The position numbers were made by a program, and so were the translations under genes. The notes under the pieces are model-generated. The model saw only the letters and a list, made by a program, of their open reading frames with translations, had not been told where the DNA came from and did no database searches. Source: a phage. From it: a DNA stretch of 64,000 nt. The stretch lies in sequence record OZ470804.1; one strand, written 5' to 3'. Below, one piece after another: positions 42-64,000 of the stretch. The number at the start of each line of letters is the position of its first letter. Position 1 is the stretch's first letter.

Positions 42-407
42 ATGAAGTGGCTAGAGGAAGCTTTTAAAAATAATATTGGTGCAATTGTAGTTGGTATTTT
101 TAGTGTTATTGGGATGTATACCACGATGCAAGTCTCAAGTGGTAAGCAAGAAGTATCTGTCACAACAAAGTTACAGCAGCTAGATAATTATTCCAAAAGT
201 AACTATTCAGCTATTCGTGATTTACAGTCTGACATGAGACTGATTCAGCTAGGGATGGAGAACCAGAAAGTTCAGTTAGAGAATGTTAAGGGTGAAAACG
301 CAAAACTTACTAAAACCCTTGATAAATTCTCTGACAGTGTGAATAATCTGGCTCAATCGGTATCAGCCCTCCAAGCTATTACTGAGAAGAATACAAAAGA
401 ACACTGA
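42..407 (+). CDS. hypothetical membrane-anchored coiled-coil protein
   Basis: ORF with GGGGG RBS 8 nt upstream; N-terminal hydrophobic helix then Q/L-rich coiled-coil; followed by terminator at 421-448. Confidence 0.6.
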   Translation: MKWLEEAFKNNIGAIVVGIFSVIGMYTTMQVSSGKQEVSVTTKLQQLDNYSKSNYSAIRDLQSDMRLIQLGMENQKVQLENVKGENAKLTKTLDKFSDSVNNLAQSVSALQAITEKNTKEH

Positions 408-3935: not shown

Positions 3936-4297
3936 AATGACCTCAAAGTTATATTAAATTTTGTATTACATTGAGTATAAAAATAAGCTATAACACCTGA
4001 CTTGTCAACAGATTTTATAGCTTATTTGGCAGATTTTTTATAAGGCTACTGCCATCCTTCCATACCGAACCGTGCCTAACCTGACCATGCCACACCTTAC
4101 AATACCAAACATTACTTAAAAACCCTCTTAGAAGACTCTTAAGTGATGTAATCGAATTTTAATGTAGCTCCGATTAACTACCCATACCTGACCAGACCTT
4201 GCCAAACCTTACCTCACCCAACTACACCGAACCTCATTAAAAGACCCTCTTAAAAGACCTTTTAAAAAGGAGCCTCCGAAGAGGCTACCTAGTCAAC
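3936..4297. repeat. structured intergenic leader, copy 1 (paralog of 5344-5772)
   Basis: shares modules GGCAGATTTTTTATAAGGCTACTGCCATCCTTCCATAC, TTTTAATGTAGCT-loop hairpin and C/A-rich G-poor tracts with the second copy. Confidence 0.7.
4262..4287 (-). terminator. intrinsic terminator (minus strand)
   Basis: hairpin AGCCTC-CGAA-GAGGCT with A-run on plus strand (T-run on minus) just downstream of ORF 4298-4738. Confidence 0.55.
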
Positions 4298-4738
4298 TTA
4301 GAAAGGTTTTCTACGTTGCTTGTTAATGTTAGCTTTCATAGCAGCTAAATGGTTTTGCTGTTCAATCAGTCGTGAACGTTCTTGATGACTAAGCGCCATA
4401 GTGTTCACATTCTCAATTGCTTGAGTGGCTTGCTTTAAAGCTCGACCAATCTTACCAGACATTTTGCGTTTTGCAATAGTTGCTTGATGCTTAGGTTCAA
4501 CCACACGATAACCAACACCCATTGAAGCAACCAGATAAATCTTCTCTTCTTTAAGAAGCTTTTCAATAAACTTCTCAAGTCGGTTTAGACGTGTAAGTGC
4601 ATAAGCCTTCATTTCATCTTCGTACTTAACAATGTCGCCTTGATAAGTTGGCTTCACAATACCTAAGAAGGTATCCATCTCAGAGTGTGATACAGTGTCA
4701 CCGTAACTAAACTTTGCTGCTAATGCTTTTGTATTCAT
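4298..4738 (-). CDS. hypothetical protein
   Basis: 146 aa ORF. Confidence 0.5.
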   Translation of the reverse strand: MNTKALAAKFSYGDTVSHSEMDTFLGIVKPTYQGDIVKYEDEMKAYALTRLNRLEKFIEKLLKEEKIYLVASMGVGYRVVEPKHQATIAKRKMSGKIGRALKQATQAIENVNTMALSHQERSRLIEQQNHLAAMKANINKQRRKPF

Positions 4739-7470: not shown

Positions 7471-7707
7471 TCACTCAATAACCGTAGTGTGCGATTGACC
7501 ATTTTTGCCATAGCTATAAGATGTTGTTGTTTGAGAGTTTGGACATCTGACAACAACAATATCCCTGCTTATGGCATCACCATGTAACTTATAGACTTTG
7601 CAATCTTGCATCTCTGGTGGGAGGCTATAAGAAGCGTTTTTGTCCTCGTAAGAGGGATTACAGCCAGATAGAAAGATAACACTAAGCACAATTACTACTT
7701 TCCACAT
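7471..7707 (-). CDS. lipoprotein
   Basis: MWKVVIVLSVIFLSGC lipobox signal peptide. Confidence 0.55.
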   Translation of the reverse strand: MWKVVIVLSVIFLSGCNPSYEDKNASYSLPPEMQDCKVYKLHGDAISRDIVVVRCPNSQTTTSYSYGKNGQSHTTVIE

Positions 7708-24738: not shown

Positions 24739-24980
24739 TGACTTATGTAATTTACTCCAAAACTGGATGCCCTCAGTGTGAGACTGCAAAGAATTTTGCA
24801 AAAGCTCGTGGTATTGACCATGTTGTGAGAATGTTAGGGCAGGATTATGAACTGTCAGACCTGATGGATATTGCACAGATGCCAGTTCGTCAGATGCCAT
24901 TCATCATGAAAACTGATGGTCAAAATCTAAAACCTGTTGGAACGCTACAGAATTTTATGGCAGAGGTGAATAATGCTTAA
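24738..24980 (+). CDS. glutaredoxin-like protein (NrdC/NrdH type)
   Basis: CPQC active-site motif near N-terminus, 80 aa, directly downstream of nrdB. Confidence 0.7.
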   Translation: MTYVIYSKTGCPQCETAKNFAKARGIDHVVRMLGQDYELSDLMDIAQMPVRQMPFIMKTDGQNLKPVGTLQNFMAEVNNA

Positions 24981-25179
24981 ACGCCTTTGGGAAGGCTTGG
25001 TTGTTGATGCACCAGCCATTGTGATTGGTATGCTTATTGTTAACCTATTTACTGATTTTGAACAAGGTTCATTGTTTGGAGCCATGTTACTATGGGTTAT
25101 CTTTGAAATATTAGAGATACAGCTAGGCATCACTGAAAAACTAAGAAAACTCGTTTCAAAGTTTTCTAAAAAGATTTAA
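24973..25179 (+). CDS. small membrane protein
   Basis: two hydrophobic segments. Confidence 0.4.
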   Translation: MLKRLWEGLVVDAPAIVIGMLIVNLFTDFEQGSLFGAMLLWVIFEILEIQLGITEKLRKLVSKFSKKI

Positions 25180-36038: not shown

Positions 36039-37148
36039 ATGACTACCAAAACTAAAGCACAGATTGACGCAGAAATTTACAAACTGGTTAAAGAAGGTAA
36101 GTTGACTAAAACAGCTATTGCACAGAAATTTAATACTTCAACCCGTTCAGTCGGTCGTGCTGTAGAGCGTCATGAAGCAACCTTAAAAGGGAATAAGAAG
36201 GCAACTTCTACACCAGCTACGAAGACTTTGAAGCAAGTTGCTAAGACCTTTAAAAAGAAAGCTGACAAACCAGTTGAAAAGGTTGTTAAAGATGCTGTAC
36301 AGAAAGCTCCGGTAAATAAACTGCATGAAGCTATGCAGAAAGATGACAAGATTGAGTACATGATTACTGGTGACTCTGTAATTATGACTTATGGTTCAGA
36401 ATCTGAAATTGTTGAGTCTACTCATCCGAACTATCAAGAGATTGTAGTTCATGTTGTGAAAGGTGAGTTCAAAAAAGCCTTTGAATTGATGAACATTCGT
36501 AAGTCTATCGAAAACTTCACTCAGGGCGCTATCACAATCAAAGGTGACAAGTTATTCTACGGTGCTGTTGAGATGCGTTCTACTCTGGTTGACCGTATTC
36601 TTCACATGATGAAGACTGGAGATAAAGGTTTCGAACGCCTTGTGATGTTCTTCGAAAAACTGATGGAAAACCCATCTAAAGACTCTGTAGAACAACTTTG
36701 GGGCTTCGTATCTCACCTTGATGTTGAAATTGATGAAGAAGGCTACATCATTGGTTGGAAGAAAGTATCTACTCGTGAAGGCAAGCTGGTTGACTCCCAC
36801 ACCTACAGAGTACCTAATGATTTGGGTAACATTGTAGAAATGCCACGTTGGATGGTTGATAATAACCGTAACGTGACTTGCTCTCAAGGTCTTCATGTTG
36901 GTGCTTGGGATTATGTTCGTTGCTTCTCAGGTGATACAATTCTGAAGGTTCGTGTCCATCCACGAGACGTTGTATCCGTACCAACTGATTACAACGATAT
37001 GAAGATGCGCTCGTCTCGTTATGAAGTTACAGCAATCGTTGATAATCAACGTAAAGTACTGAAAGCATGGGATGGCAAGACTGAAGCTTTGCATGTCATC
37101 GTTGGCACTGCTGGGGAACTTATCTCTCAGCGTAAACGTGAAATCTAA
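36039..37148 (+). CDS. rIIB-like protein (putative)
   Basis: 369 aa ORF immediately downstream of rIIA-like gene; assignment by context only. Confidence 0.35.
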   Translation: MTTKTKAQIDAEIYKLVKEGKLTKTAIAQKFNTSTRSVGRAVERHEATLKGNKKATSTPATKTLKQVAKTFKKKADKPVEKVVKDAVQKAPVNKLHEAMQKDDKIEYMITGDSVIMTYGSESEIVESTHPNYQEIVVHVVKGEFKKAFELMNIRKSIENFTQGAITIKGDKLFYGAVEMRSTLVDRILHMMKTGDKGFERLVMFFEKLMENPSKDSVEQLWGFVSHLDVEIDEEGYIIGWKKVSTREGKLVDSHTYRVPNDLGNIVEMPRWMVDNNRNVTCSQGLHVGAWDYVRCFSGDTILKVRVHPRDVVSVPTDYNDMKMRSSRYEVTAIVDNQRKVLKAWDGKTEALHVIVGTAGELISQRKREI

Positions 37149-37164
37149 TAAGTAATTTCTTAAA

Positions 37165-37188
37165 AGGCTGCTTCGGCGGCCTTTTTTA
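37165..37188 (+). terminator. intrinsic terminator
   Basis: AGGCTGCTTCGGCGGCCT followed by TTTTTT. Confidence 0.7.
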
Positions 37189-37248
37189 TTTGTATTTTGT
37201 GCAGAGTGCTGTATAATTGTTTTCACGATAAACTAAACAGGAGAACCA

Positions 37249-37797
37249 ATGAAGAAATTGATTCTAGGTTTGTGCTTAATGTTTACAGCACACTTATCTT
37301 ATGCAGTTGACTGCCCAGAGCTATCAATTAGCCAAAAAGTAAACATGTTAAAAGCTTACCAGTATGGTGAGAATAACATGGGTAAAGGTTGGGGTATCAC
37401 TCTAGCTGCTATAGCCTTACAAGAGTCAGAGTTAGGTCTGAAGGTAGAGAATAAAAAGACCCATGACTATGGTATCTTCCAGAATCACTTGAAGACTGTT
37501 GTAAAGCGTAACAAAATTAGTCCTAATGTGGCTAAAAAGAAACTCTTAAAAGACTTTGACTATGCTGCGAAGGAAACTCACAAAGAGCTTGAGTTTTGGA
37601 CAAAGGTGCATGGTCAGCCAAAGTCAAAGAAGACTTTACAAAAAGTTTTAGCATCATATAATGCTGGGTATTCGTACAGAATCCCTAAAGCTAAGAAATA
37701 TTCTCAAGATGTCTATAACAACATGAAAGTTATTGCTCAATGTGAATTTGCAACAAACATTTCTAAGGTAAACCATGAAAAAATTAAAAAAGTCTGA
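37249..37797 (+). CDS. secreted protein, possible lytic transglycosylase
   Basis: signal peptide MKKLILGLCLMFTAHLSYA; ALQESELG..YGIFQ resembles the SLT catalytic motif. Confidence 0.4.
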   Translation: MKKLILGLCLMFTAHLSYAVDCPELSISQKVNMLKAYQYGENNMGKGWGITLAAIALQESELGLKVENKKTHDYGIFQNHLKTVVKRNKISPNVAKKKLLKDFDYAAKETHKELEFWTKVHGQPKSKKTLQKVLASYNAGYSYRIPKAKKYSQDVYNNMKVIAQCEFATNISKVNHEKIKKV

Positions 37798-38470
37798 TGA
37801 AGTACTGTGTCATGCTTACGACTTACATCCTCATGAGTTAGGTCTTGATTCCTGTGTATGGACTCCAGAACAGTGTAGGGATTTTGAAGACACTGCAAGA
37901 GAAGTTGTATGTTCACTCGAAGAGTTCCACACATCAGAACCAATTGTGAATGTTGTAGATAAAGAGACTGGACAAACTATAGGTGTAAGTCGTGATAGCT
38001 TAGTCATAGTCAATAAAGACCTTGTAGAAAAAGGGAATCTCATCTTAGCAGATATTGATGGTGTTCTTACAAATTTTAATCACGAAGATTGTTCAACGGA
38101 ATTGACTGACGGTTCATTCTCGCAGTACACTAATCTTCTTGACTCTGTAAGAGCAAAACCAACGTATGTTTTCAATATCATTGATGCAATTGCTAATCAT
38201 GCTGCTGTTGGACTCTTGACAGCGAGAGGTGAATCTCAGAGAATACCTACTGAGATGTTTTTAAGGCATAACACAGAGCATGACTACATGCTTTTTATGC
38301 GTGGTTTTGGGACTAACTCTATAAGCGCAGAAAGTTTGAAAGTGAGGATGATTCAGTCTTGCATTCTGCCTTACTTTAATATAGTATGTTTTATAGAAGA
38401 CACAGAGAAGAATGTGCAGAAGGTGAACAGAATCCTTCCACACATTAAAACCATGTTAGTTAAACATTGA
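37775..38470 (+). CDS. hypothetical protein
   Basis: 231 aa ORF. Confidence 0.5.
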   Translation: MKKLKKSDEVLCHAYDLHPHELGLDSCVWTPEQCRDFEDTAREVVCSLEEFHTSEPIVNVVDKETGQTIGVSRDSLVIVNKDLVEKGNLILADIDGVLTNFNHEDCSTELTDGSFSQYTNLLDSVRAKPTYVFNIIDAIANHAAVGLLTARGESQRIPTEMFLRHNTEHDYMLFMRGFGTNSISAESLKVRMIQSCILPYFNIVCFIEDTEKNVQKVNRILPHIKTMLVKH

Positions 38471-38480
38471 GAGAAAACTT

Positions 38481-38945
38481 ATGAACAATATCATTACGGT
38501 AGCACTGGACGATACGGTAAACAAATCTGCAATAGTTCGTAAAATGATTCAAGGTAACTTTGAAGGTAAAATTTTTCGTGCTGTTAATGTAAAAGCTGAT
38601 GGCAGCATTCGTGAATATCGTGCATTATTGAATGTTAAAAAACACGTAAAAGGTGCTGGTTCAACGACTGCACACAAAGAAAACCTGATGACTATCTATG
38701 ATATGGGTAAGGCTTCAGAGTTAGGTGCTGAAGGTATCGTTAAAGAAGGTGCTCCGTATCGCTCTTTCAATCTGGAAACTACTCTTATGCTTTCCTTTAC
38801 AAGTGGTTCTAAAACAATCACTTATCTCTTTACTGATGCTGCAACGGTATCTGCTATTAAGGATAGCACTGTCAAAGCTGGCGTAGTTGCTGCTGCAAAA
38901 GCTTCTTCGATGGCTGCGAATATCCTTGCTAAAGTCCTCGGTTAA
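38481..38945 (+). CDS. hypothetical protein
   Basis: 154 aa ORF, strong RBS, terminator downstream. Confidence 0.55.
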   Translation: MNNIITVALDDTVNKSAIVRKMIQGNFEGKIFRAVNVKADGSIREYRALLNVKKHVKGAGSTTAHKENLMTIYDMGKASELGAEGIVKEGAPYRSFNLETTLMLSFTSGSKTITYLFTDAATVSAIKDSTVKAGVVAAAKASSMAANILAKVLG

Positions 38946-38956
38946 GGTTAAGATAC

Positions 38957-38980
38957 AGGCTCCTTCGGGAGCCTTTTTCA
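38957..38980 (+). terminator. intrinsic terminator
   Basis: AGGCTCCTTCGGGAGCCT followed by TTTTT. Confidence 0.7.
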
Positions 38981-38997
38981 TTTTAGGAGATTGTTAA

Positions 38998-39345
38998 ATG
39001 ACATTTAAAGAGTTCTGTCAAGCTACTTTCATAATTGTTTTCTTAGTTGGTGCAGGTGTCTGGGGAGGATACTCTTACAGAGACTACCAAGTTGCTGAAA
39101 CTGAGCTAAATAATGAGAAGCTGATAAGTGTTGCTAAAGATGCTTATCAGGAAGGATTAGTCACACTGAGCACCAATTACAAAAATGATTTGAAAGATGT
39201 GCTTGCTAAGAATAAGCATACAAAAGAGGTACTAACATATGAAAAAACTAAGCCAGAGTTTTATAATGTTTGTGTTACTGATAACTATGTCAGGGTGTTC
39301 AACGAACAAAGTGAGCAGTACATTCAAAAACTCCCAAGTAAGTGA
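38998..39345 (+). CDS. i-spanin-like protein (Rz-like)
   Basis: N-terminal transmembrane helix then charged helical region; AGGAGA RBS. Confidence 0.4.
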   Translation: MTFKEFCQATFIIVFLVGAGVWGGYSYRDYQVAETELNNEKLISVAKDAYQEGLVTLSTNYKNDLKDVLAKNKHTKEVLTYEKTKPEFYNVCVTDNYVRVFNEQSEQYIQKLPSK

Positions 39346-39508
39346 GAGTGATAAGTACACTCAAGAAGAATCACGGTATATCATCAAAGGTAACACAGGC
39401 AGTGATGTAGCAGCAGCCCTTGAGTTCTATCGTGACGGCTTTTACCAGTGCACAATCAAAGCTAACAACCTTATTGACATGATTTTATTAGGGAATAAGC
39501 AGCAATGA
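39239..39508 (+). CDS. o-spanin-like lipoprotein (Rz1-like)
   Basis: starts inside 3' end of previous gene in another frame; lipobox LITMSGC. Confidence 0.4.
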   Translation: MKKLSQSFIMFVLLITMSGCSTNKVSSTFKNSQVSESDKYTQEESRYIIKGNTGSDVAAALEFYRDGFYQCTIKANNLIDMILLGNKQQ

Positions 39509-39774
39509 CAGAGAATCAAGACACTTTCTATGTAGAAGGTTACTTACTGTTGCCACGACCAAAAGAAACTTATATGCGAATTGATTTCTTACCAACCATT
39601 ATGGATAATGTGATGTGCCATATCTTTATGCAAGGTGTCACAGCACAGCTTAAGCATGTTGGTAAAGAGTGCAAAATAAAGGTTGACACTCATCCAGAAA
39701 TCAAAGAGAATCACTACACATGGTTCTTACCAGACTCTAAAGAAATCTTAGCAGTTCTTAAAACGAGGAAGTAA
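39505..39774 (+). CDS. hypothetical protein
   Basis: 89 aa ORF. Confidence 0.45.
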   Translation: MTENQDTFYVEGYLLLPRPKETYMRIDFLPTIMDNVMCHIFMQGVTAQLKHVGKECKIKVDTHPEIKENHYTWFLPDSKEILAVLKTRK

Positions 39775-39776
39775 CT

Positions 39777-40100
39777 ATGCAGATTAATGGAAGAGACTTT
39801 GTAGCCGTTTACTACGAGAAAGGTAAAGAAGTTGGCGTAGCACAAGTATCTTATGGCAATGGTAAGTGGCTATATGGAACAATCGCAGTAGTAGGCACAA
39901 GAAGTGATACAAAAACTTTTAAAGATTGTGTTGAACTTCTTGAAGAATCCATTCAGAACCATTGGTGTCTGATATGGATGACTGACAACGAAGTGATAGA
40001 ACGTTTCAAAAAGATTGACATCAACATTGACAGTATTGAGCATGTTGATTTATATGAGCTAACTGAGAAGGTAAACTATGAAAGCTCTAGAGGTAATTGA
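39777..40100 (+). CDS. hypothetical protein
   Basis: 107 aa ORF. Confidence 0.45.
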   Translation: MQINGRDFVAVYYEKGKEVGVAQVSYGNGKWLYGTIAVVGTRSDTKTFKDCVELLEESIQNHWCLIWMTDNEVIERFKKIDINIDSIEHVDLYELTEKVNYESSRGN

Positions 40101-40305
40101 TAAAGACACTGGAGAAGTTACATCAGCATGTGTTTTCGTTAGTAACGACACAGTGATACCATTTTACAATCTCGATAGTTTTAGTTTTACAGGGACAACT
40201 CCAGAGGAATACTTTGAAGACCTCACCTTTGCCAGAATCTCTATAGATACATTCTATAAATGCTTCTATGATGAAGGTAAAGAATTACGAGAAACCGAAC
40301 TATAA
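40078..40305 (+). CDS. hypothetical protein
   Basis: 75 aa ORF. Confidence 0.4.
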   Translation: MKALEVIDKDTGEVTSACVFVSNDTVIPFYNLDSFSFTGTTPEEYFEDLTFARISIDTFYKCFYDEGKELRETEL

Positions 40306-40317
40306 GGTGTATATTAT

Positions 40318-40518
40318 ATGGCTGACTTCTGCAAAGACTGTTCTATCGAAATGTTTGGACGTGATACAGGTGACTTAAAAGGTCTTATCACTGAAGATGA
40401 CTTTAAAGCTGGCTATGCAATGCCAGTAATCTGTGAAGGCTGTGGGTGCATCTGGGTAGACCATGAAGGGCAACGTGTAAAACCTTCAGAAGATAAAGAA
40501 TCTTGGGAGAGATGTTAA
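40318..40518 (+). CDS. Cys-rich small protein
   Basis: CKDC..CEGCGC pairs, 66 aa. Confidence 0.45.
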   Translation: MADFCKDCSIEMFGRDTGDLKGLITEDDFKAGYAMPVICEGCGCIWVDHEGQRVKPSEDKESWERC

Positions 40519-41304
40519 ATGGGTATTGTAAAAATCATCAAAGGCGATATCTTTGACGCCTTTGATAAAGGTAAGTTTGATATCATTGGGCATGGTTGCA
40601 ACTGTATGAATTTCATGGGTGCAGGTATTGCAGCAACTATTTCTAAGCGTTATCCAAAAGTGTATGATACTGACACAGAAGTTTACCTGTTTGCAGGTGG
40701 CATCCGTCACAAACCCTGTGAGAATTTACTAGGTAATTTCTCTGTAGCACGCTTAAAACAAGGTCGTATAGCTAACCTTTACACCCAACTTCATACTGGT
40801 AAAGATGCCCGATACAGTGCTTTAGAGTCATCTTTGAAACAACTTAACAGATACTGTGAAGTTAACCAGTTGAAGAAAGTCGGTCTGCCTATGATTGGTG
40901 CAGGTATCGGTGGACTTGACCCTCAAGCTGTCACAGTTATCATCAATCAGGTTATGAAGAGCGTAGATGTTTATCTGTATGTCTATGAAGCAAAAATGTA
41001 TAATGAGTTACACTCAGGTTGGAAGAACTACTGTGAACCAGAATACTTTGCAGGTGTAGCAGTGTTCATAGATAACGCAGTTACCCTCTTCAGACGAAGA
41101 AAAGGTAAGATACATCAAAGTAACCCTCCGGTTGAAAAGATGTCTCTAAGTAACGCTCTAGTTACCCACCTGTCAAAGAGCAATCACAGAATTGCAGTAA
41201 CATTTGGAAGTGATGCAGATGCTTATATCTATGCAAGAACTGATGAGGATATCGAGACGGTTTTCTCTTCACCAGAGCTTACCTTCTTAGACGCAAAGAA
41301 CTAA
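40519..41304 (+). CDS. macro-domain (ADP-ribose binding/processing) protein
   Basis: IKGDIF..FDIIGHGCNCMNFMGAGIAATISKRYP and VGLPMIGAGIGGLDP match macro-domain signature; about 110 aa C-terminal extension. Confidence 0.65.
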   Translation: MGIVKIIKGDIFDAFDKGKFDIIGHGCNCMNFMGAGIAATISKRYPKVYDTDTEVYLFAGGIRHKPCENLLGNFSVARLKQGRIANLYTQLHTGKDARYSALESSLKQLNRYCEVNQLKKVGLPMIGAGIGGLDPQAVTVIINQVMKSVDVYLYVYEAKMYNELHSGWKNYCEPEYFAGVAVFIDNAVTLFRRRKGKIHQSNPPVEKMSLSNALVTHLSKSNHRIAVTFGSDADAYIYARTDEDIETVFSSPELTFLDAKN

Positions 41305-41369
41305 GAAACTTCGTAGTATATTCACAATAGACTAAGCCTTTCTTATCTGGTAAATTTTTCAGGTAAGGA

Positions 41370-41600
41370 GGGCTTTTTCATTTCAGAATTGTGCAGGTAT
41401 ATTTCTATAGAGAAATCTGTAGAGGAAATTTTGAACTCCAAAGAGAAAATTCATTTTCAAACTGTGCAGATAATCTCCAAAGGACTTTTTCATTTTCAAA
41501 ACGTGCAGACCCCGCTCAGGTCGGGCAAGAAAAATCATTTTAGAATTGTGCAGGTAGGTGGGTGCAGGTGTGGATGTCGCCATTTCTCACAAGGCTACCA
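41370..41600. repeat. iteron-like array (4-5 copies of TCATTTTCARAAYTGTGCAGRT)
   Basis: copies near 41380, 41450, 41495, 41540 plus GGGTGCAGGTG; about 45-55 bp spacing. Confidence 0.6.
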
Positions 41601-41733
41601 CATCTGAAAAGAAAAGTCAACAGAAAAATTTGTAGCGGATTGAAAAATAATTCTTGATTGTAGTTCTGTTTTGTGGTAGTCGCGTGCGCCCGTTTCATTA
41701 CAGTTTTTTGCAAAAATATTTTTAAAATTCCTA

Positions 41734-41762
41734 TTGACTCTCTGACTATGGTTATTTAGTAT
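41734..41762 (+). promoter_or_regulatory. sigma70-type promoter
   Basis: TTGACT-17 bp-TAGTAT in AT-rich region upstream of first small gene. Confidence 0.55.
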
Positions 41763-41812
41763 TTGCATCAGACAGGCAAACAAGCCTACTTCCTAAACTG
41801 GAGATTTAAAAA

Positions 41813-42019
41813 ATGATTTACAGCCGTGAATTGATGGTTACAACCAACGTTAATACAAAGGTAAAACGTTTTTACATGCAAGTGTGCGGCGCATGGCGTA
41901 GAATATCAGAAGCTGATTATTGCAACTATGTAGAAACGGCAATCAATTCTAATTGCTACCTTACGAAGAATACAAAGCGACATATAAAACAGACAGCGGT
42001 TTACTATTACGATATATAA
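41813..42019 (+). CDS. small hypothetical protein (array gene 1)
   Basis: 68 aa ORF preceded by conserved TAAACTGGAGATT RBS block. Confidence 0.5.
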   Translation: MIYSRELMVTTNVNTKVKRFYMQVCGAWRRISEADYCNYVETAINSNCYLTKNTKRHIKQTAVYYYDI

Positions 42020-42020
42020 A

Positions 42021-42109
42021 AAGTACTTTACAGGGGGCTTAAAAGCTGATATCTTAAGCCCCAGATAAAGAGCTTTACTAAATTAACCCTTAAACTAGGA
42101 GATTCAAAA
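42021..42109 (+). promoter_or_regulatory. leader cassette type A, copy 1
   Basis: AAGTACTTTACA, GGGGCTT..AAGCCCC hairpin, AGATAAAGAGCTTTAC, TAAACTAGGAGATTCAAAAATG. Confidence 0.65.
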
Positions 42110-42493
42110 ATGGCTTATCGTGCACCTAAATTCATCAACAAAGACAACTTTCGCAACGCACTGGAGAAGTCACTTGATGAAAATTTTAAAGGTAACATTA
42201 TCGTTGTTCACGCATTCAATTTTAAGTATGATGTAAACGGGAATAGAATCAACCATTACACAGCAACCATGTTAGATGGTACGCTATCAAGTGAAAAAGC
42301 TGTACTGAATGCACTTGCAGGACGTGGTAAAAACCTGATAAGATGCGATAAGAGACGTTATCAGGGTGGCGCATATGGTTATGATGATGCTGTTTACCAT
42401 CTTGAAAATATGGGCTATCAAGTAGAAAAAGCTGGAGCATCACAAATCATCGGCAGCGATGGTTATGTAACTATCTTCAAAATTAACAAATAA
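42110..42493 (+). CDS. small hypothetical protein (array gene 2)
   Basis: 127 aa ORF driven by type A cassette. Confidence 0.55.
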   Translation: MAYRAPKFINKDNFRNALEKSLDENFKGNIIVVHAFNFKYDVNGNRINHYTATMLDGTLSSEKAVLNALAGRGKNLIRCDKRRYQGGAYGYDDAVYHLENMGYQVEKAGASQIIGSDGYVTIFKINK

Positions 42494-42579
42494 AGTACTT
42501 TACAAGGGGCTTATAGTTCGATAAAGTAAGCCCCAGATAAAGAGCTTTACCACTCAATCCTAAATTGGAGAACTTAAAA
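42493..42579 (+). promoter_or_regulatory. leader cassette type A, copy 2
   Basis: same cassette with compensatory stem variant GGGGCTTAT..TAAGCCCC. Confidence 0.65.
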
Positions 42580-42837
42580 ATGGCTATTATCAAAAACGTT
42601 GTAATTACTGCAAAGACTCGTGATGACGCTCGCGTTATGGCTAAAAAGTTATGCGGGAAAGTGGTTGACAACGGAAAACAATCCGCTGTAAGGTGGAACG
42701 TGAAGTCGGATAAGCAATTAACCTTAAAACGTAATTCAAACAACCTTTTTAAAGGTGTAAAATCACTCGGTAAAGTGAACGTGTTTACCAAAAAAGGCTA
42801 TAAAATGCACTTATCATTAACTGGCAATTTAATCTGA
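42580..42837 (+). CDS. small hypothetical protein (array gene 3)
   Basis: start set to ATG 42580 by analogy with other cassettes; ORF-track start 42565 is TTG. Confidence 0.5.
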   Translation: MAIIKNVVITAKTRDDARVMAKKLCGKVVDNGKQSAVRWNVKSDKQLTLKRNSNNLFKGVKSLGKVNVFTKKGYKMHLSLTGNLI

Positions 42838-42839
42838 TA

Positions 42840-42925
42840 AAGTACTTTACAAGGGGCTTAAAAGTTGGTATCTTAAGCCCCAGATAAAGAGCTTTACCAC
42901 TAAATCCTAAACTGGAGATTCTAAA
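42840..42925 (+). promoter_or_regulatory. leader cassette type A, copy 3
   Basis: TTTACA-17 bp-TATCTT promoter-like spacing overlapping the hairpin. Confidence 0.65.
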
Positions 42926-43222
42926 ATGAAATTATCGAATAAAGTTCGTGAAAATCTAAGCAAGTTACTCAACAAAATTGATTTTATCGAGACATCAAGA
43001 AATAGTCATGATGTTATGGAATGGTTACACGGCAAAATAAAAGGCCGTCGTGTAGTGATTTGCTTATGGAATAGTTGCAGGGAATATAAAAAACCTGTAT
43101 TGCAAGTTAATATTTATGATGATACTTTTAAAAGTCCTGTAAAGTCTAAAAGCGATTTATTAGAATCCTATGAGATAACTGTAAATGGCAAAGTGTCACG
43201 TAAAGAGGAAACACCATGTTAA
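42926..43222 (+). CDS. small hypothetical protein (array gene 4)
   Basis: 98 aa ORF. Confidence 0.55.
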   Translation: MKLSNKVRENLSKLLNKIDFIETSRNSHDVMEWLHGKIKGRRVVICLWNSCREYKKPVLQVNIYDDTFKSPVKSKSDLLESYEITVNGKVSRKEETPC

Positions 43223-43548
43223 TGACTGGTATCACTGCAATCATTGCCATTTTCGCGCTATATAAGGCATATAAAGCCTATAATCTAGCAAATAAGGCAA
43301 TCACACAGCAGGTTAGCAATAACCTTGTAGAAAGCTTTCTAGGGCGTCTCAGTGATGAGCAAATAAAGCGGTTAGAAATGAGCTTCAGATTTCAATCAAA
43401 AACTTATCAAATCAGCGACATTTTCAAAGATGATTTTCAGCTAGTCGATGATTATAATGCTCTGATAAATGCTTTAAATGTCAGTGACTTAAAAGACTAT
43501 TACGCTGTAATTGTTCAAGAATTAAGCAAACGAAAAAATTTCTCTTGA
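43216..43548 (+). CDS. small membrane protein (array gene 5)
   Basis: N-terminal TM helix MLMTGITAIIAIFALY. Confidence 0.5.
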   Translation: MLMTGITAIIAIFALYKAYKAYNLANKAITQQVSNNLVESFLGRLSDEQIKRLEMSFRFQSKTYQISDIFKDDFQLVDDYNALINALNVSDLKDYYAVIVQELSKRKNFS

Positions 43549-43638
43549 TTTTAGTTTTAAAAACAAGTAAATTATCAATCAACGGGGAGGGAATGACCTT
43601 CCCCACTAAGTAAAGTCCTTAAACTAGGAGATTCAAAA
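43545..43638 (+). promoter_or_regulatory. leader cassette type B, copy 1 (promoter + leader hairpin + RBS)
   Basis: TTGATT-17 bp-TAAATT then GGGGAGGGAATGACCTTCCCC hairpin then TAAACTAGGAGATTCAAAAATG. Confidence 0.65.
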
Positions 43639-43911
43639 ATGTATACTACTAACAACGGTCGCACTCTAAACGTAACCCTACGCCACTATGTGAACGGTGT
43701 AATGCACTTCGAGGATTTACAAGCTGAACAGCACATTTTGGATTGGCAACTTGCAGGACTCCAAAAAACTGCTACCGGATACGGGAAAAAGATTCCAACT
43801 AGCTGGAAAGTATACTACGAAGGACGTTTGCGCAGAATTTATCAGGATGTATATAGCAATAGCGCAACAAGTTACATCATGGTAAAAGGTAAAAAATTAC
43901 ACTTAGTATAA
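43639..43911 (+). CDS. small hypothetical protein (array gene 6)
   Basis: 90 aa ORF. Confidence 0.55.
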   Translation: MYTTNNGRTLNVTLRHYVNGVMHFEDLQAEQHILDWQLAGLQKTATGYGKKIPTSWKVYYEGRLRRIYQDVYSNSATSYIMVKGKKLHLV

Positions 43912-43996
43912 AGTACTTTACAAGGGGCTTATAGTTCGATAAAGTAAGCCCCAGATAAAGAGCTTTATCACTCAATCCTAAATTGGAGATTCTAAA
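43911..43996 (+). promoter_or_regulatory. leader cassette type A, copy 4
   Basis: near-identical to copy 2. Confidence 0.65.
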
Positions 43997-44401
43997 ATGG
44001 CTATTAATAATCGTGAGTTATCAATCTTAAAAGCACGTTTGACCGTTAACCGGATTAATGTTATTACGTCGTCAGCACCTGATGAGACATTGCACAACAT
44101 TATCGGGAAGATTCAAAGTGTTATCTTAGACGTTGAAAGCGTAAAAAACTCATTGGCTGACGTTGCAGCAGGTATCACGCTAGACGGTGCACAATATGAA
44201 ATGGCTGACATGTTAGGCAAATCTAAGGTAATGAATAAAGAGCTTGATTTAAAAATGTTCCGCTTTGCCGTGAAAGTGTGGCTATCTGTCGAGTATGACG
44301 CAAATTTTGCAATCGCTGACTTTTTCGCAACATGGTTGCAACGTAATTTGACAAATCACGATTTTCGTGATGTCTGTGATGCAATTTATGCAGAACTCTA
44401 A
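43997..44401 (+). CDS. small hypothetical protein (array gene 7)
   Basis: 134 aa ORF. Confidence 0.55.
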   Translation: MAINNRELSILKARLTVNRINVITSSAPDETLHNIIGKIQSVILDVESVKNSLADVAAGITLDGAQYEMADMLGKSKVMNKELDLKMFRFAVKVWLSVEYDANFAIADFFATWLQRNLTNHDFRDVCDAIYAEL

Positions 44402-44410
44402 AAAATTTTG

Positions 44411-44502
44411 TTGACACTGGTTTTTAGATAGATTAAATTACACATCAACGGGGAGGGAATGACCTTCCCCACTAAATAAAGTCCTAAACTGGAGATTCTA
44501 AA
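44411..44502 (+). promoter_or_regulatory. leader cassette type B, copy 2
   Basis: TTGACA-17 bp-TAAATT then GGGGAGGGAATGACCTTCCCC. Confidence 0.65.
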
Positions 44503-44700
44503 ATGGCTATTATTAACGGTTTAACCATTGAAACTACACACATCAAAGATATCAAAGTTGGCGATATAGTCCTTTCCCACGGCGTAGAAAAAACTGTCAC
44601 TGCAAAGGATATCAAAGAGGATTCTTTCATGGGTAGAACTCTCTTCGGTGATTCTTATTGCTTAGGTTATCTTGCAGTTTTAAAAGTTGTCAAAAATTAA
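44503..44700 (+). CDS. small hypothetical protein (array gene 8)
   Basis: 65 aa ORF. Confidence 0.5.
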   Translation: MAIINGLTIETTHIKDIKVGDIVLSHGVEKTVTAKDIKEDSFMGRTLFGDSYCLGYLAVLKVVKN

Positions 44701-44706
44701 GTAATA

Positions 44707-44792
44707 AAGTACTTTACAAGGGGCTTAAAAAGTTGGTATCTTAATCCCCAGATAAAGAGCTTTACACAGTCCTTAAACTAGGAGATTAAAAA
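44707..44792 (+). promoter_or_regulatory. leader cassette type A, copy 5
   Basis: GGGGCTTAAAAAGTTGGTATCTTAATCCCC variant. Confidence 0.6.
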
Positions 44793-45041
44793 ATGATGAA
44801 TTATTTAAACATTCCCGACACTTGCAAACTGTTAACGCAACCAGAAAATTTAGGTAAGGCTTACCTATACCATATGCCAAATAATACGGCAAAAACTTAT
44901 AGTTACACTGTTAACCGATTCACGGCATACGCTGCAAAAAACGGTTACAAGGTTGTTACTCAAAAAGTAACACTGTTTACAACTGTTGAGGAACTCCCCA
45001 CGGTTGCAGTTAAACTGATTTTTTCAAAGAAAACTAAATAG
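44793..45041 (+). CDS. small hypothetical protein (array gene 9)
   Basis: 82 aa ORF. Confidence 0.5.
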   Translation: MMNYLNIPDTCKLLTQPENLGKAYLYHMPNNTAKTYSYTVNRFTAYAAKNGYKVVTQKVTLFTTVEELPTVAVKLIFSKKTK

Positions 45042-45126
45042 ATTTCTTTACACGGGGTTATCAAGCTGATAAGATAGCCCCAGATAAAGAAATTTATCAA
45101 ATAAATCCTAAACTGGAGATTCAAAA
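45041..45126 (+). promoter_or_regulatory. leader cassette type A, copy 6 (diverged)
   Basis: GGGGTTATC..GATAGCCCC stem keeps pairing despite sequence change. Confidence 0.55.
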
Positions 45127-45669
45127 ATGAAATGTTTTCACGGTACTACTCAAGAAAACTTTATCAACCTGATTAATAACGGTGATAAACCATCAGGCGC
45201 ATGGAATTGTTCTGATATGGATGGGAATTTTTACGTTTACCCAGAGAATAAAATCTATGGCGACGATGAGGAAGAAATAATCTTTGAAGGTATCCAGCAA
45301 GCTCTGGGCAATGCCACTATCACCGCAGCTTTTCAGATGAAAACTCAAAACATTGTTATCTTGGAACTTGAGATTCCAGAAGATGAGCTAAACGATGATT
45401 ATTCTTGTGATAATATGTCGAGCGTGGCAAGTTTTACAGAATATTTCGATTTAAATTGGATTAAAAAGGTTTACATCACTGAATTTAATGCTATGTATTC
45501 GCCTTTTTGTCTTCCTTCACTGGATAACCCAAATATGAATTATCTTGATGAGACATTAGAACTACTTGCTAAAAGTGTTCAACAATCGGACAGTATTCAG
45601 GTTTTTTGTGACATCATGGACACACTAACGGAAAACATCGCAGAAGAGGATTTAAAGAGCTTTTTCTAA
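45127..45669 (+). CDS. hypothetical protein (array gene 10)
   Basis: 180 aa acidic ORF followed by terminator. Confidence 0.55.
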   Translation: MKCFHGTTQENFINLINNGDKPSGAWNCSDMDGNFYVYPENKIYGDDEEEIIFEGIQQALGNATITAAFQMKTQNIVILELEIPEDELNDDYSCDNMSSVASFTEYFDLNWIKKVYITEFNAMYSPFCLPSLDNPNMNYLDETLELLAKSVQQSDSIQVFCDIMDTLTENIAEEDLKSFF

Positions 45670-45701
45670 AAACCTATGCAATCACATTATAAACACTATT
45701 C

Positions 45702-45721
45702 AGCCCCTTGTAGGGGCTTTT
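45702..45721 (+). terminator. intrinsic terminator
   Basis: AGCCCC-TTGT-AGGGGCT followed by TTT. Confidence 0.55.
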
Positions 45722-45735
45722 AAGAGGCTTAAATC

Positions 45736-45969
45736 ATGCTTACAACCGTTTATCTTATCCTTTCTATATGTAATGGTCATTCATGCGATTTTAAAGGGCT
45801 TGAAGAGTTTACAGGAAGTAAAGAAAATGCTATTCAAGTTTGCCAGATAGCGAGACAAGACTATCCCGCAAGTGATGATATTCAGTGTTACTTTAAGACA
45901 GAAGATGAAGACGGTATCTATTTTGACAGTGTAGATGGTCAGTATGAAATTATCATTGAAAAAGACTAG
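45736..45969 (+). CDS. small hypothetical protein (array gene 11)
   Basis: 77 aa ORF. Confidence 0.5.
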   Translation: MLTTVYLILSICNGHSCDFKGLEEFTGSKENAIQVCQIARQDYPASDDIQCYFKTEDEDGIYFDSVDGQYEIIIEKD

Positions 45970-46058
45970 ACAAGCCTGATAAAAATCTGTAAATTGTCAA
46001 TCAACGGGGAGGGGATGACCTTCCCCACTAAATAAAATCCTAAACTGGAGATTCAAAA
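45967..46058 (+). promoter_or_regulatory. leader cassette type B, copy 3
   Basis: TAGACA-17 bp-TAAATT then GGGGAGGGGATGACCTTCCCC. Confidence 0.65.
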
Positions 46059-46400
46059 ATGGCTTATGTAACCGTAATTACCGATAAAGCTGGCGCATCT
46101 TGGTCAACTCAAGTAAGCGATAAGATGTCACCTATGCAGTGCCTAAAATACTTTGAGCAATGGAACAAAGGCGAGGATGTCAGCCCCTTTCAAGTAATGC
46201 AGATTATCCATACAGATAACGAAGGGAAGAAAACTGTTTTGAATAGTGAGTACTACGCAACCAGATTTGAAACGAGATGTAAAGCAATGAAGCTCTTGCG
46301 TGAGTCTGGTTATTCTCATATTGCGGCAATAATCTGGGATGACTTGCTAAAAAGTCAGCGTATCAGCTATGTAAAACCTGAAAAAATATTCATCAGTTAA
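46059..46400 (+). CDS. small hypothetical protein (array gene 12)
   Basis: 113 aa ORF. Confidence 0.55.
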   Translation: MAYVTVITDKAGASWSTQVSDKMSPMQCLKYFEQWNKGEDVSPFQVMQIIHTDNEGKKTVLNSEYYATRFETRCKAMKLLRESGYSHIAAIIWDDLLKSQRISYVKPEKIFIS

Positions 46401-46432
46401 TCAATAACTTACAAAAAACTTTTAAAAAAGTG

Positions 46433-46461
46433 TTGACAATGCCCCTTGACATTGGTAACTT
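46433..46461 (+). promoter_or_regulatory. putative promoter with tandem TTGACA boxes
   Basis: AAAAAGTGTTGACAATGCCCCTTGACATTGGTAACTT. Confidence 0.4.
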
Positions 46462-46529
46462 TGTTCGAGGGGGTTTATCTAAAAGGGATTAACTTAAAAG
46501 ATTCTTTATAGATAAACTTAAAAAATTGC

Positions 46530-46622
46530 TTGCAATCAGATATCAAAACAAGTAAATTACTAATCAACGGGAGGCGATAACCTCCCCACTAAGTAAAGTC
46601 CTTAAACTAGGAGATTCAAAAA
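46530..46622 (+). promoter_or_regulatory. leader cassette type B, copy 4
   Basis: TTGCAA-17 bp-TAAATT then GGGAGGCGATAACCTCCCC variant hairpin. Confidence 0.6.
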
Positions 46623-47153
46623 ATGAACAAGTTCAAAGCTATCAACTTCATTCGTTCAAATAGTGTTATGTCAAAGCCTGTTAAAGACACCTATGAATTT
46701 CGTTGTAATGGTGTACATTTTGCAACAATCACCAAATCAGAAAACGGGGCTTATTACGTCCATCGTCGTAATGTTTCTACTGTTGTAGTTTCTCACTTTA
46801 TGCAAGCTGTCGCGGAACTTCTCCCGATGTTTTTAGGTCTTTACTTAGATGAGTGTAAAAACGTTTACAATCACGTTAAAAACCTTTTAAACAGTTATAA
46901 AATGGCTTACGAACGCTCTATCAAGTCCTTAAACAAGTTCTATAAAGCCCCTGCAAATACTGTATCAATGGCCTATGGCGTAGGTGGCTGGACTTTTAAC
47001 CTTTCCCTAGTGGAAGAAATCGAGCTTTATGATTTACGTCCTAATGGTTACTCTAAGACACTGGGAGAAGGTTTAACGTTCAATATCAAAAACTTAGAAA
47101 AAACTTTAAAAGATATTGAAAAAGATATTGACGAAACAATCAAAAACCTGTAA
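46623..47153 (+). CDS. hypothetical protein (array gene 13)
   Basis: 176 aa ORF. Confidence 0.55.
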   Translation: MNKFKAINFIRSNSVMSKPVKDTYEFRCNGVHFATITKSENGAYYVHRRNVSTVVVSHFMQAVAELLPMFLGLYLDECKNVYNHVKNLLNSYKMAYERSIKSLNKFYKAPANTVSMAYGVGGWTFNLSLVEEIELYDLRPNGYSKTLGEGLTFNIKNLEKTLKDIEKDIDETIKNL

Positions 47154-47243
47154 TTTGTCAATCAACGGGGAGGGAATGACCTCCCCCCACTACATAAAAC
47201 CCTTAAACTAGGAGATTCAAAAATGGTGATAAGAAAGAAGTAG
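47128..47243 (+). promoter_or_regulatory. leader cassette type B, copy 5 (orphan, drives only a 6-codon ORF)
   Basis: TTGACG-17 bp-TAATTT then hairpin then RBS then ATGGTGATAAGAAAGAAGTAG. Confidence 0.55.
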
Positions 47244-52806: not shown

Positions 52807-53271
52807 TTACTTTGGATATACACTGTCAAGATAAATGTCAGCTTCCATTCTACGTCTGTTTTTCAGACCGTTTGAAGTGACCTTCTTACCTTTGACTGTA
52901 ACCTTGTTCCACCACTGCATAGCTTCTGCACAACCTACCTTATTACCAGCGTTGTGGCGCTTGATAAATGTAGAATCCTGCATAGCTGTGATACCGATGT
53001 TGTATGTTTCACTTACAAGTGCATCGAACTCATTCTGAGAGGTTGGAACCTTGATAGCTTTATTCACTGCTGCAACGAACTTCTCAACATCTGCAAGAAG
53101 ATACTGTTCAGCTTGTTCAGCAGTAATTTTCATACCCATCTTAACAGGTTTTCCGTCAATACGGATTGTACCATACCCGATTGTTGGGATTCCGGCAGAG
53201 TCTTCGTAAGCCTCTAACTTCAGACCTTCAAAGAACTTAATAGCTTCTAAACCTTTTCTTGAGAGTTGCAT
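52807..53271 (-). CDS. endolysin, GH24 lysozyme
   Basis: catalytic E..D..T spacing in FEGLKLEAYEDSAGIPTIGYGT. Confidence 0.85.
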   Translation of the reverse strand: MQLSRKGLEAIKFFEGLKLEAYEDSAGIPTIGYGTIRIDGKPVKMGMKITAEQAEQYLLADVEKFVAAVNKAIKVPTSQNEFDALVSETYNIGITAMQDSTFIKRHNAGNKVGCAEAMQWWNKVTVKGKKVTSNGLKNRRRMEADIYLDSVYPK

Positions 53272-63980: not shown

Positions 63981-64000
63981 TTCTATTTGCGGAGGTGCTT

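Follow-up and report, generated by a model that had tools for sequence, protein, structure and literature searches.

The genome considered here raises the question of whether two small open reading frames (ORFs), one of which begins inside the other, encode a spanin, even though they are located far from the gene coding for the endolysin. The window, i.e., the whole stretch of phage DNA that was analysed (64,000 nt, sequence record OZ470804.1), is a genome of Felixounavirus, a group of Felix O1-like myophages of Salmonella, E. coli, and Shigella. The sequence-only reading of this stretch had pointed to a spanin-like pair in the "classic Rz/Rz1 arrangement", remote from a GH24 endolysin and lacking an evident holin. 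The follow-up reported below makes it very probable that the products of these ORFs form a two-component spanin, with genes of the overlapped type. Both genes are present in the ORF listing as well as in the raw sequence, together with the following elements:

38998..39345, plus strand: i-spanin gene, 115 aa, with a transmembrane domain (TMD) at residues ~6-24 (nt 39013-39069) and a periplasmic domain of ~91 aa; assigned by the match to PHROG 1152, pN/pS of 0.07-0.26, and the i-spanin annotation in many records.
39239..39508, plus strand: o-spanin gene, 89 aa, with a signal peptide at residues 1-19 and predicted acylation of Cys20 (codon 39296-39298); assigned by the lipobox rule, PHROG matches, pN/pS of 0.11-0.20, and the o-spanin annotation in many records.
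39239..39345, plus strand: dual-coding overlap of 107 nt, comprising i-spanin codons 81-115 in frame 0 and o-spanin codons 1-35 in frame +1.
38985..38989, plus strand: Shine-Dalgarno sequence AGGAG, 8 nt 5' of the i-spanin ATG; a ribosome-binding site (RBS) is annotated at the equivalent site in phage Meda.
39224..39229, plus strand: Shine-Dalgarno sequence AAGAGG within the i-spanin gene, 9 nt 5' of the o-spanin ATG; Meda and Mijalis carry an RBS annotation at the corresponding position.

The N-terminal transmembrane helix expected in the 115-aa product was borne out by its hydropathy profile. The best Kyte-Doolittle 19-mer (residues 6-24, FCQATFIIVFLVGAGVWGG) has a mean value of 1.75, and hydrophobicity is confined to residues ~1-28, no other hydrophobic stretch being present; the remaining ~91 residues are hydrophilic and contain a single cysteine, C92. 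We infer an N-in, type II orientation for this protein. The lipoprotein signal (LITMSGC) ascribed to the 89-aa product was likewise found in place: its N terminus, MKKLSQSFIMFVLLITMSGC followed by S, conforms to the PROSITE PS51257-type lipobox rule (MFVLLITMSGC, Cys20) and is made up of a basic n-region (K2/K3), an uncharged h-region, and a T-M-S-G-C lipobox, where Met at the -3 position is less usual than Leu and permitted by the rule. The +2 residue following the lipobox Cys is Ser and not the Lol-avoidance Asp, which would fit sorting to the outer membrane. Mature o-spanin comprises 70 aa, is devoid of proline, and possesses one further cysteine, C71. In the whole window, the lipobox rule is matched by two of the 525 ATG-started frames of at least 50 aa, so the o-spanin signal exceeds chance.

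The second ORF does begin inside the 3' end of the first one in another frame, as had been claimed: it occupies the +1 frame relative to the i-spanin ORF and extends 163 nt beyond the i-spanin stop, while the overlap codes, in the o-spanin frame, for the signal peptide, the lipobox, and the first mature residues. Alternative-frame ORFs are common in the AT-rich window and several GenBank records omit or shorten the 89-aa ORF, so one could suppose that only the 115-aa gene is real and the other is a chance frame resembling a lipoprotein signal. This supposition is contradicted by the pattern of substitutions in the window compared with Mijalis, SUSP1, and EcSzw-2. The part coding only for i-spanin displays pN/pS of 0.07-0.26, and the part coding only for o-spanin displays 0.11-0.20 in the o-frame vs. 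1-6 in the two remaining frames of this DNA, which served as controls. In the 107-nt overlap, nucleotide divergence is about half that in the single-coding parts (0.09-0.14 vs. 0.10-0.30), and both frames show a suppression of apparent synonymous change; such a pattern is the signature expected of two functional overlapping genes, each frame being under purifying selection. Moreover, the o-spanin gene has a Shine-Dalgarno sequence of its own at the correct spacing, its homologues were found by tblastn in 400 phage records (the i-subunit, in 406), and the ORF, the lipobox Cys, and the C-terminal motif persist in lineages retaining about 25-33% identity. The chance-frame explanation is effectively refuted already, and its probability is negligible.

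The pair is an already known, catalogued, and annotated member of the JH2 spanin family. A megablast search with the region 37000-41500 returned 258 phage records, 210 of them covering at least 80% of the query; the best matches were 95-97% identical and belonged almost all to Felixounavirus. Dozens of GenBank records label exactly these two ORFs, with the same boundaries, as i-spanin and o-spanin (e.g., VSe11, Meda, BPS17L1, JohannRWettstein, and others), the notes in the Meda record stating "Identified by ISP tool / OSP tool". The i-spanin of BPS17L1 is 100% identical to that of the window and the i-spanin of JH2 is 98.3% identical. At the level of protein families, i-spanin matched PHROG 1152 "Rz-like spanin" over its full length (E=9.6e-42), and o-spanin matched two unnamed families, PHROG 4180 (E=2e-50) and PHROG 2425 (E=8e-10), and weakly PHROG 456 "Rz-like spanin" (E=3e-4). 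No meaningful match for either subunit was retrieved from Pfam or NCBIfam, and no Rz or Rz1 model of Pfam-A was matched by either of them at E<=1. In the published spanin census, the "Overlapped" JH2 i-spanin family covers Felix01, wV8, JH2, Moogle, and PhiEco32 along with ECBP2, KBNP1711, NJ01, EC6, FO1a, FSL_SP-010/012/107, Mushroom, and UAB_phi87, and its Felix O1-like members recur in the JH2 o-spanin family (Kongari et al. 2018, PMC6139136). The window pair belongs with the Felix O1-like part of this family (Felix O1, wV8, JH2, FO1a, UAB_Phi87, Moogle, Mushroom), its i-spanin branch also taking in phiEco32-like podophages; the JH2-type relatives have the same gene lengths, 107-nt +1 overlap, and genome position and differ by strain-level substitutions only.

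Existing annotation of the o-spanin gene is uneven, the ORF being omitted from several GenBank records or annotated in a shorter version. In the Yersinia phage vB_YenM_324 the o-spanin frame spans 4191-4481 (locus L004) and the GenBank CDS begins too late, at 4293; in EcSzw-2 the frame spans 1242-1511 (locus L009) and the CDS begins too late, at 1305. Both late-started CDSs lose the signal peptide and the lipobox, and the upstream in-frame sequence restores both of them; in vB_YenM_324 it reads ...LLMCVLLMNMSGC followed by STK.

With regard to the genomic neighbourhood, two further elements need to be specified:

36039..37148, plus strand: rIIB homologue (PHROG 609 RIIB, E=8e-89; synteny with VSe11, Meda, and JohannRWettstein).
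38957..38982, plus strand: intrinsic-terminator-like hairpin (AGGCTCC-TTCG-GGAGCCT followed by a T-run), ending 16 nt 5' of the i-spanin start; a terminator is annotated at this place in Meda and Mijalis.

The local order, i.e., rIIA, rIIB, a secreted 182-aa protein, polynucleotide kinase (pnk), a 154-aa protein, the terminator, the spanin pair, several small genes, and a macro-domain phosphatase, is the same in VSe11, Meda, Mijalis, SUSP1, and JohannRWettstein. The pair is thus situated in an early-type rIIA-rIIB-pnk block, outside any lysis cassette, and no sigma-70-like promoter was found between the hairpin and the i-spanin start codon. The early-looking block, the terminator-like hairpin just 5' of the pair, and the want of a recognisable promoter of its own count against the spanin reading. 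Because the hairpin directly precedes the i-spanin gene, the pair probably has to be transcribed by read-through out of the rII/pnk-type block lying upstream.

Other genes of this region deserve mention in their own right. The 182-aa protein (37249-37797, plus strand) has a cleavable-looking Sec signal, MKKLILGLCLMFTAHLSYA followed by VD, and lytic-transglycosylase-like motifs (ALQESE, YGIFQ, SYNAG); its match to Pfam SLT (E=9e-4) falls just short of the cut-off, its family (PHROG 600) has no assigned function, and some records call it "putative lysin". Its gene, flanked by rIIB and pnk, precedes the spanins by 1.2 kb, and the product may be a second muralytic enzyme, one that is exported. The macro-domain (Appr-1-p processing) "phosphatase" is encoded at 40519-41304 (plus strand), 1 kb downstream of the spanin pair, and in the podophage phiEco32 a macro-domain gene (locus L003, 4439-4879) comes directly after the homologous spanin pair; this proximity is a small synteny common to otherwise unrelated phages. 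After the macro-domain gene, the region 41300-47200 harbors small genes without an assigned function, each preceded by an intergenic gap, and the 3' end of the window (58000-64000) corresponds, by comparison with the JohannRWettstein annotation, to the large Felix O1-like tRNA gene cluster.

The position of the pair in the rIIA-rIIB-pnk block, away from the late and lysis genes, leaves room for another envelope role of an inner-membrane protein and an outer-membrane lipoprotein, e.g., superinfection exclusion or receptor blocking as in the case of T5 Llp or the Cor lipoproteins. Such a role would be in line with the best PHROG match of the lipoprotein, which is of "unknown function", and with the fact that the spanin function of JH2-type pairs is a predicted one. 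Exclusion lipoproteins are not known to be encoded in conserved frame overlap with a type II membrane protein as their partner, which argues against this interpretation. It is further weakened by the deep conservation of the pair and by the genomic context of its distant homologues.

Nine lineages were compared, including Felixounavirus, Mooglevirus, Suspvirus, Kolesnikvirus phiEa104, Pectobacterium phage Arno18, Kuravirus phiEco32, and the P2-like Peduoviridae phages SW3 and vB_YenM_324. Identity to the i-spanin of the window drops to 21-30% in the distant lineages, and the alignment shows the TMD kept in all nine i-spanin homologues; the +1 overlapped lipobox ORF is also present in all nine lineages, the lipobox being SGC, SAC, or ASC followed by S. 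Invariant residues of i-spanin (E82, F88, N90, C92, Y97, F101, N102) fall into the C-terminal motif EK-x-K/Q-P-x-F-x-N-x-C-x-x-x-x-Y-x-x-x-FN, and those of o-spanin (G54, C71, N76, L78) into the C-terminal block G54...LEFYRD-x-Y-x-x-C71-x-x-x-x-N76-x-L78. Each subunit therefore has one invariant periplasmic Cys near its C terminus (C92 and C71, respectively), which fits the finding that lone spanin cysteines lie near the heterotypic interface (PMC6139136).

Relatives of both subunits occupy the spanin position in canonical lysis cassettes of unrelated phage types. In vB_YenM_324 the gene order is holin, metallopeptidase (M15 endolysin), I-spanin, O-spanin; in the P2-like SW3 it is holin, M15 peptidase, i-spanin homologue; and the cassette of Sashavirus Sergei reads holin/antiholin, endolysin, holin/antiholin, i-spanin, o-spanin, the last one being 32% identical to the o-spanin of the window. 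The assignment of the spanin function to the pair comes from signals, architecture, and context: the structure of the genes, their topogenic signals, the selection acting on either frame, the families to which the products belong, and the occurrence of homologues in lysis cassettes were all observed directly. Indeed, the pair possesses the attributes by which two-component spanins are predicted (Summer 2007, Kongari 2018), i.e., a single N-terminal TMD, a signal peptidase II lipobox without Asp at +2, adjacent overlapped genes with the i-gene first, and periplasmic Cys; the association with holin and endolysin is absent at this locus and present for the homologues in vB_YenM_324, SW3, and Sergei. 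By analogy with T4, whose spanin genes show as much, adjacency to holin and endolysin genes would not be obligatory. The proven spanins of T4 are also situated away from e and t, beside pnk, and the joint retention of both subunits by nine lineages, an invariant Cys being found close to the C terminus of either, is the pattern of two-component spanins (PMC6139136). Considering all these arguments, an envelope role other than that of a spanin is improbable.

The comparison with the known spanins specifies what kind of spanin is encoded here. The notion of a "classic Rz/Rz1 arrangement" stands as far as it denotes a spanin pair and has to be amended with regard to gene architecture: lambda Rz1 is wholly embedded in Rz, whereas the o-spanin gene of the window is overlapped only, like that of P2. 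In P2 LysB/LysC, the prototype of the overlapped type, the o-gene starts in the 3' end of the i-gene in the +1 frame and passes its stop, and the same is the case here. The likeness to LysB/LysC concerns architecture, the P2 proteins being filed in sequence families separate from JH2 (Kongari et al., PMC6139136); the P2 pair lies within a lysis cassette, in contrast to the window pair, and the lysis cassettes of P2-like Peduoviridae hold distant homologues of the i-spanin of the window.

With lambda Rz/Rz1 the window pair shares the predicted logic, i.e., a type II inner-membrane protein and an outer-membrane lipoprotein acting after holin and endolysin, as well as the availability of periplasmic Cys for intermolecular disulfides. 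At the same time, mature Rz1 is proline-rich whereas the mature o-spanin of the window is proline-free. The number of periplasmic Cys (i + o) is 1 + 1 in the window pair, 2 + 1 in lambda, and 0 + 2 in T4; the disulfides of lambda and T4 have been shown to be homotypic. Overall, the pair is a predicted functional analogue of lambda Rz/Rz1 outside its sequence families. T4 PseT.3/PseT.2 are of similar size (117 and 83-99 aa), and T4 resembles the window phage in having scattered lysis genes, spanins near polynucleotide kinase, and rII genes; the T4 spanin genes are separated, whereas those of the window are overlapped. Homology to PseT.3/PseT.2, suspected from the common polynucleotide kinase neighbourhood, was rejected by BLASTP: the i-subunits gave E=27 against PseT.3, and the o-subunits aligned with PseT.2 only at the signal-peptide/lipobox region (E=0.04). 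Lacking sequence homology to the T4 proteins, the proximity to polynucleotide kinase is at most a curiosity. The dissimilarity in sequence to both the lambda and the T4 spanins, as well as the proline-free mature o-spanin, likewise counts against the spanin reading.

The need for a spanin follows from the other components of the lysis system, of which two are to be listed:

52807..53271, minus strand: endolysin, a T4-lysozyme-type muramidase of GH24 (PF00959, E=6.6e-41; PHROG 7 endolysin).
42..407, plus strand: holin candidate of 121 aa, whose gene closes the tail-fibre block; a single TMD at the N terminus is combined with a coiled-coil-like tail.

The endolysin gene is located on the opposite strand, 13.3 kb downstream of the spanin pair, in agreement with the distance of 13 kb given by the sequence-only reading. 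Its product carries the E-x8-D-x5-T catalytic motif and has no N-terminal signal, SAR helix, or hydrophobic segment; hence, the enzyme is soluble and needs a canonical holin somewhere. A soluble endolysin acting in a Gram-negative host also makes a spanin or its equivalent necessary. The remark that no holin is evident was a fair one: following a hydropathy scan of all window ORFs, eight membrane-protein candidates were compared with PHROG and Pfam, and none of them matched a holin family. The ORF 42-407 is 88% identical to the "holin" of vB_SflM_004 and the "putative holin" of phiSUSP1, and it is the most often nominated holin candidate in the Felix O1-like group. Another ORF, 24973-25179 (plus strand), lies between the glutaredoxin and nrdD genes and encodes 68 aa in which two TMDs are combined with a charged tail at the C terminus, a shape that resembles class II holins; it is conserved in 258 phage records, whose annotations go no further than "membrane" or "hypothetical" protein. 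A tblastn search with two of the candidates showed that other records name them only membrane or hypothetical proteins, and no holin is annotated in the BASEL phage JohannRWettstein. Spanins far from the endolysin and the lack of an obvious holin are a published trait of Felix O1-like phages (PMC3185647, PMC4319497, PMC6486253); according to the Moogle announcement, the lysis genes of this group "are scattered around the genome" (PMC4319497).

A further question is whether the spanin could be dispensable or redundant, its task being accomplished by another outer-membrane disruptor, e.g., a disruptin-like peptide or the lipoprotein encoded at 7471-7707. Spanin-less phages using other outer-membrane disruptors are described in the preprint bioRxiv 10.1101/515445, and the window does contain this second small lipoprotein, with no assigned function. 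Such a redundancy is difficult to reconcile with the strong purifying selection on both genes and their universal retention across Ounavirinae, and the lipoprotein 7471-7707 lacks a C-terminal TMD, hence it is no unimolecular spanin (u-spanin). Dispensability of the spanin is accordingly judged very improbable. The product of 7471-7707 (minus strand) is itself a 78-aa protein with the signal MWKVVIVLSVIFLSG followed by C and two further Cys, belonging to PHROG 902 (function not assigned); a u-spanin was considered for it and rejected on the above ground, and it may be an exclusion-type lipoprotein.

For the overlapped two-component spanin, a mechanism can be proposed in which complex formation, disulfides, membrane fusion, and timing are modelled on the work on lambda and T4. 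Experimental work on spanins essentially comprises that on lambda Rz/Rz1, plus the T4 complementation by the authors of the census (Kongari et al. 2018, PMC6139136). The 115-aa protein would be anchored in the inner membrane in type II orientation, its ~91-residue periplasmic domain reaching outward. The 89-aa protein would be exported via Sec, acylated at Cys20, and cleaved by signal peptidase II, and the Lol system would then deliver it to the outer membrane, into the inner leaflet, since Ser and not Asp is found at the +2 position. The conserved C-terminal blocks of both subunits would bind to each other, forming a bridge across the periplasm threaded through the murein, and Cys92 and Cys71 would most likely form intermolecular disulfides near the interface, as in lambda and T4. 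Upon the release of the GH24 endolysin by the putative holin and the degradation of murein, the spanin complexes would become free to move and collapse, fusing the inner and outer membranes and removing the last barrier to virion release.

Two embellishments of this scheme can be envisaged, and we consider them rather unlikely. As there is one invariant Cys per subunit and both reside in the C-terminal blocks presumed to form the interface, a heterotypic i/o disulfide, i.e., a covalent bridge between the inner and outer membranes, could lock the complex. Separately, as the pair has an early-type operon position directly behind a terminator, read-through rather than late transcription could set the spanin dosage. 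Single-sequence AlphaFold2 models (mean pLDDT of 52 for i-spanin and 71 for o-spanin, the signal peptide coming out as a beta strand) were judged unreliable, also with regard to the expected helical or coiled-coil periplasmic domain.

Felix O1-like phages are widely used for typing and biocontrol of Salmonella and E. coli. It should be borne in mind that frame-overlapped o-spanin genes are still overlooked or mis-started in many deposited genomes. The pair described here completes the predicted lysis toolkit of a Felix O1-like phage and otherwise implies little beyond correct annotation; with its genes scattered, the lysis system is T4-like rather than lambda-like.
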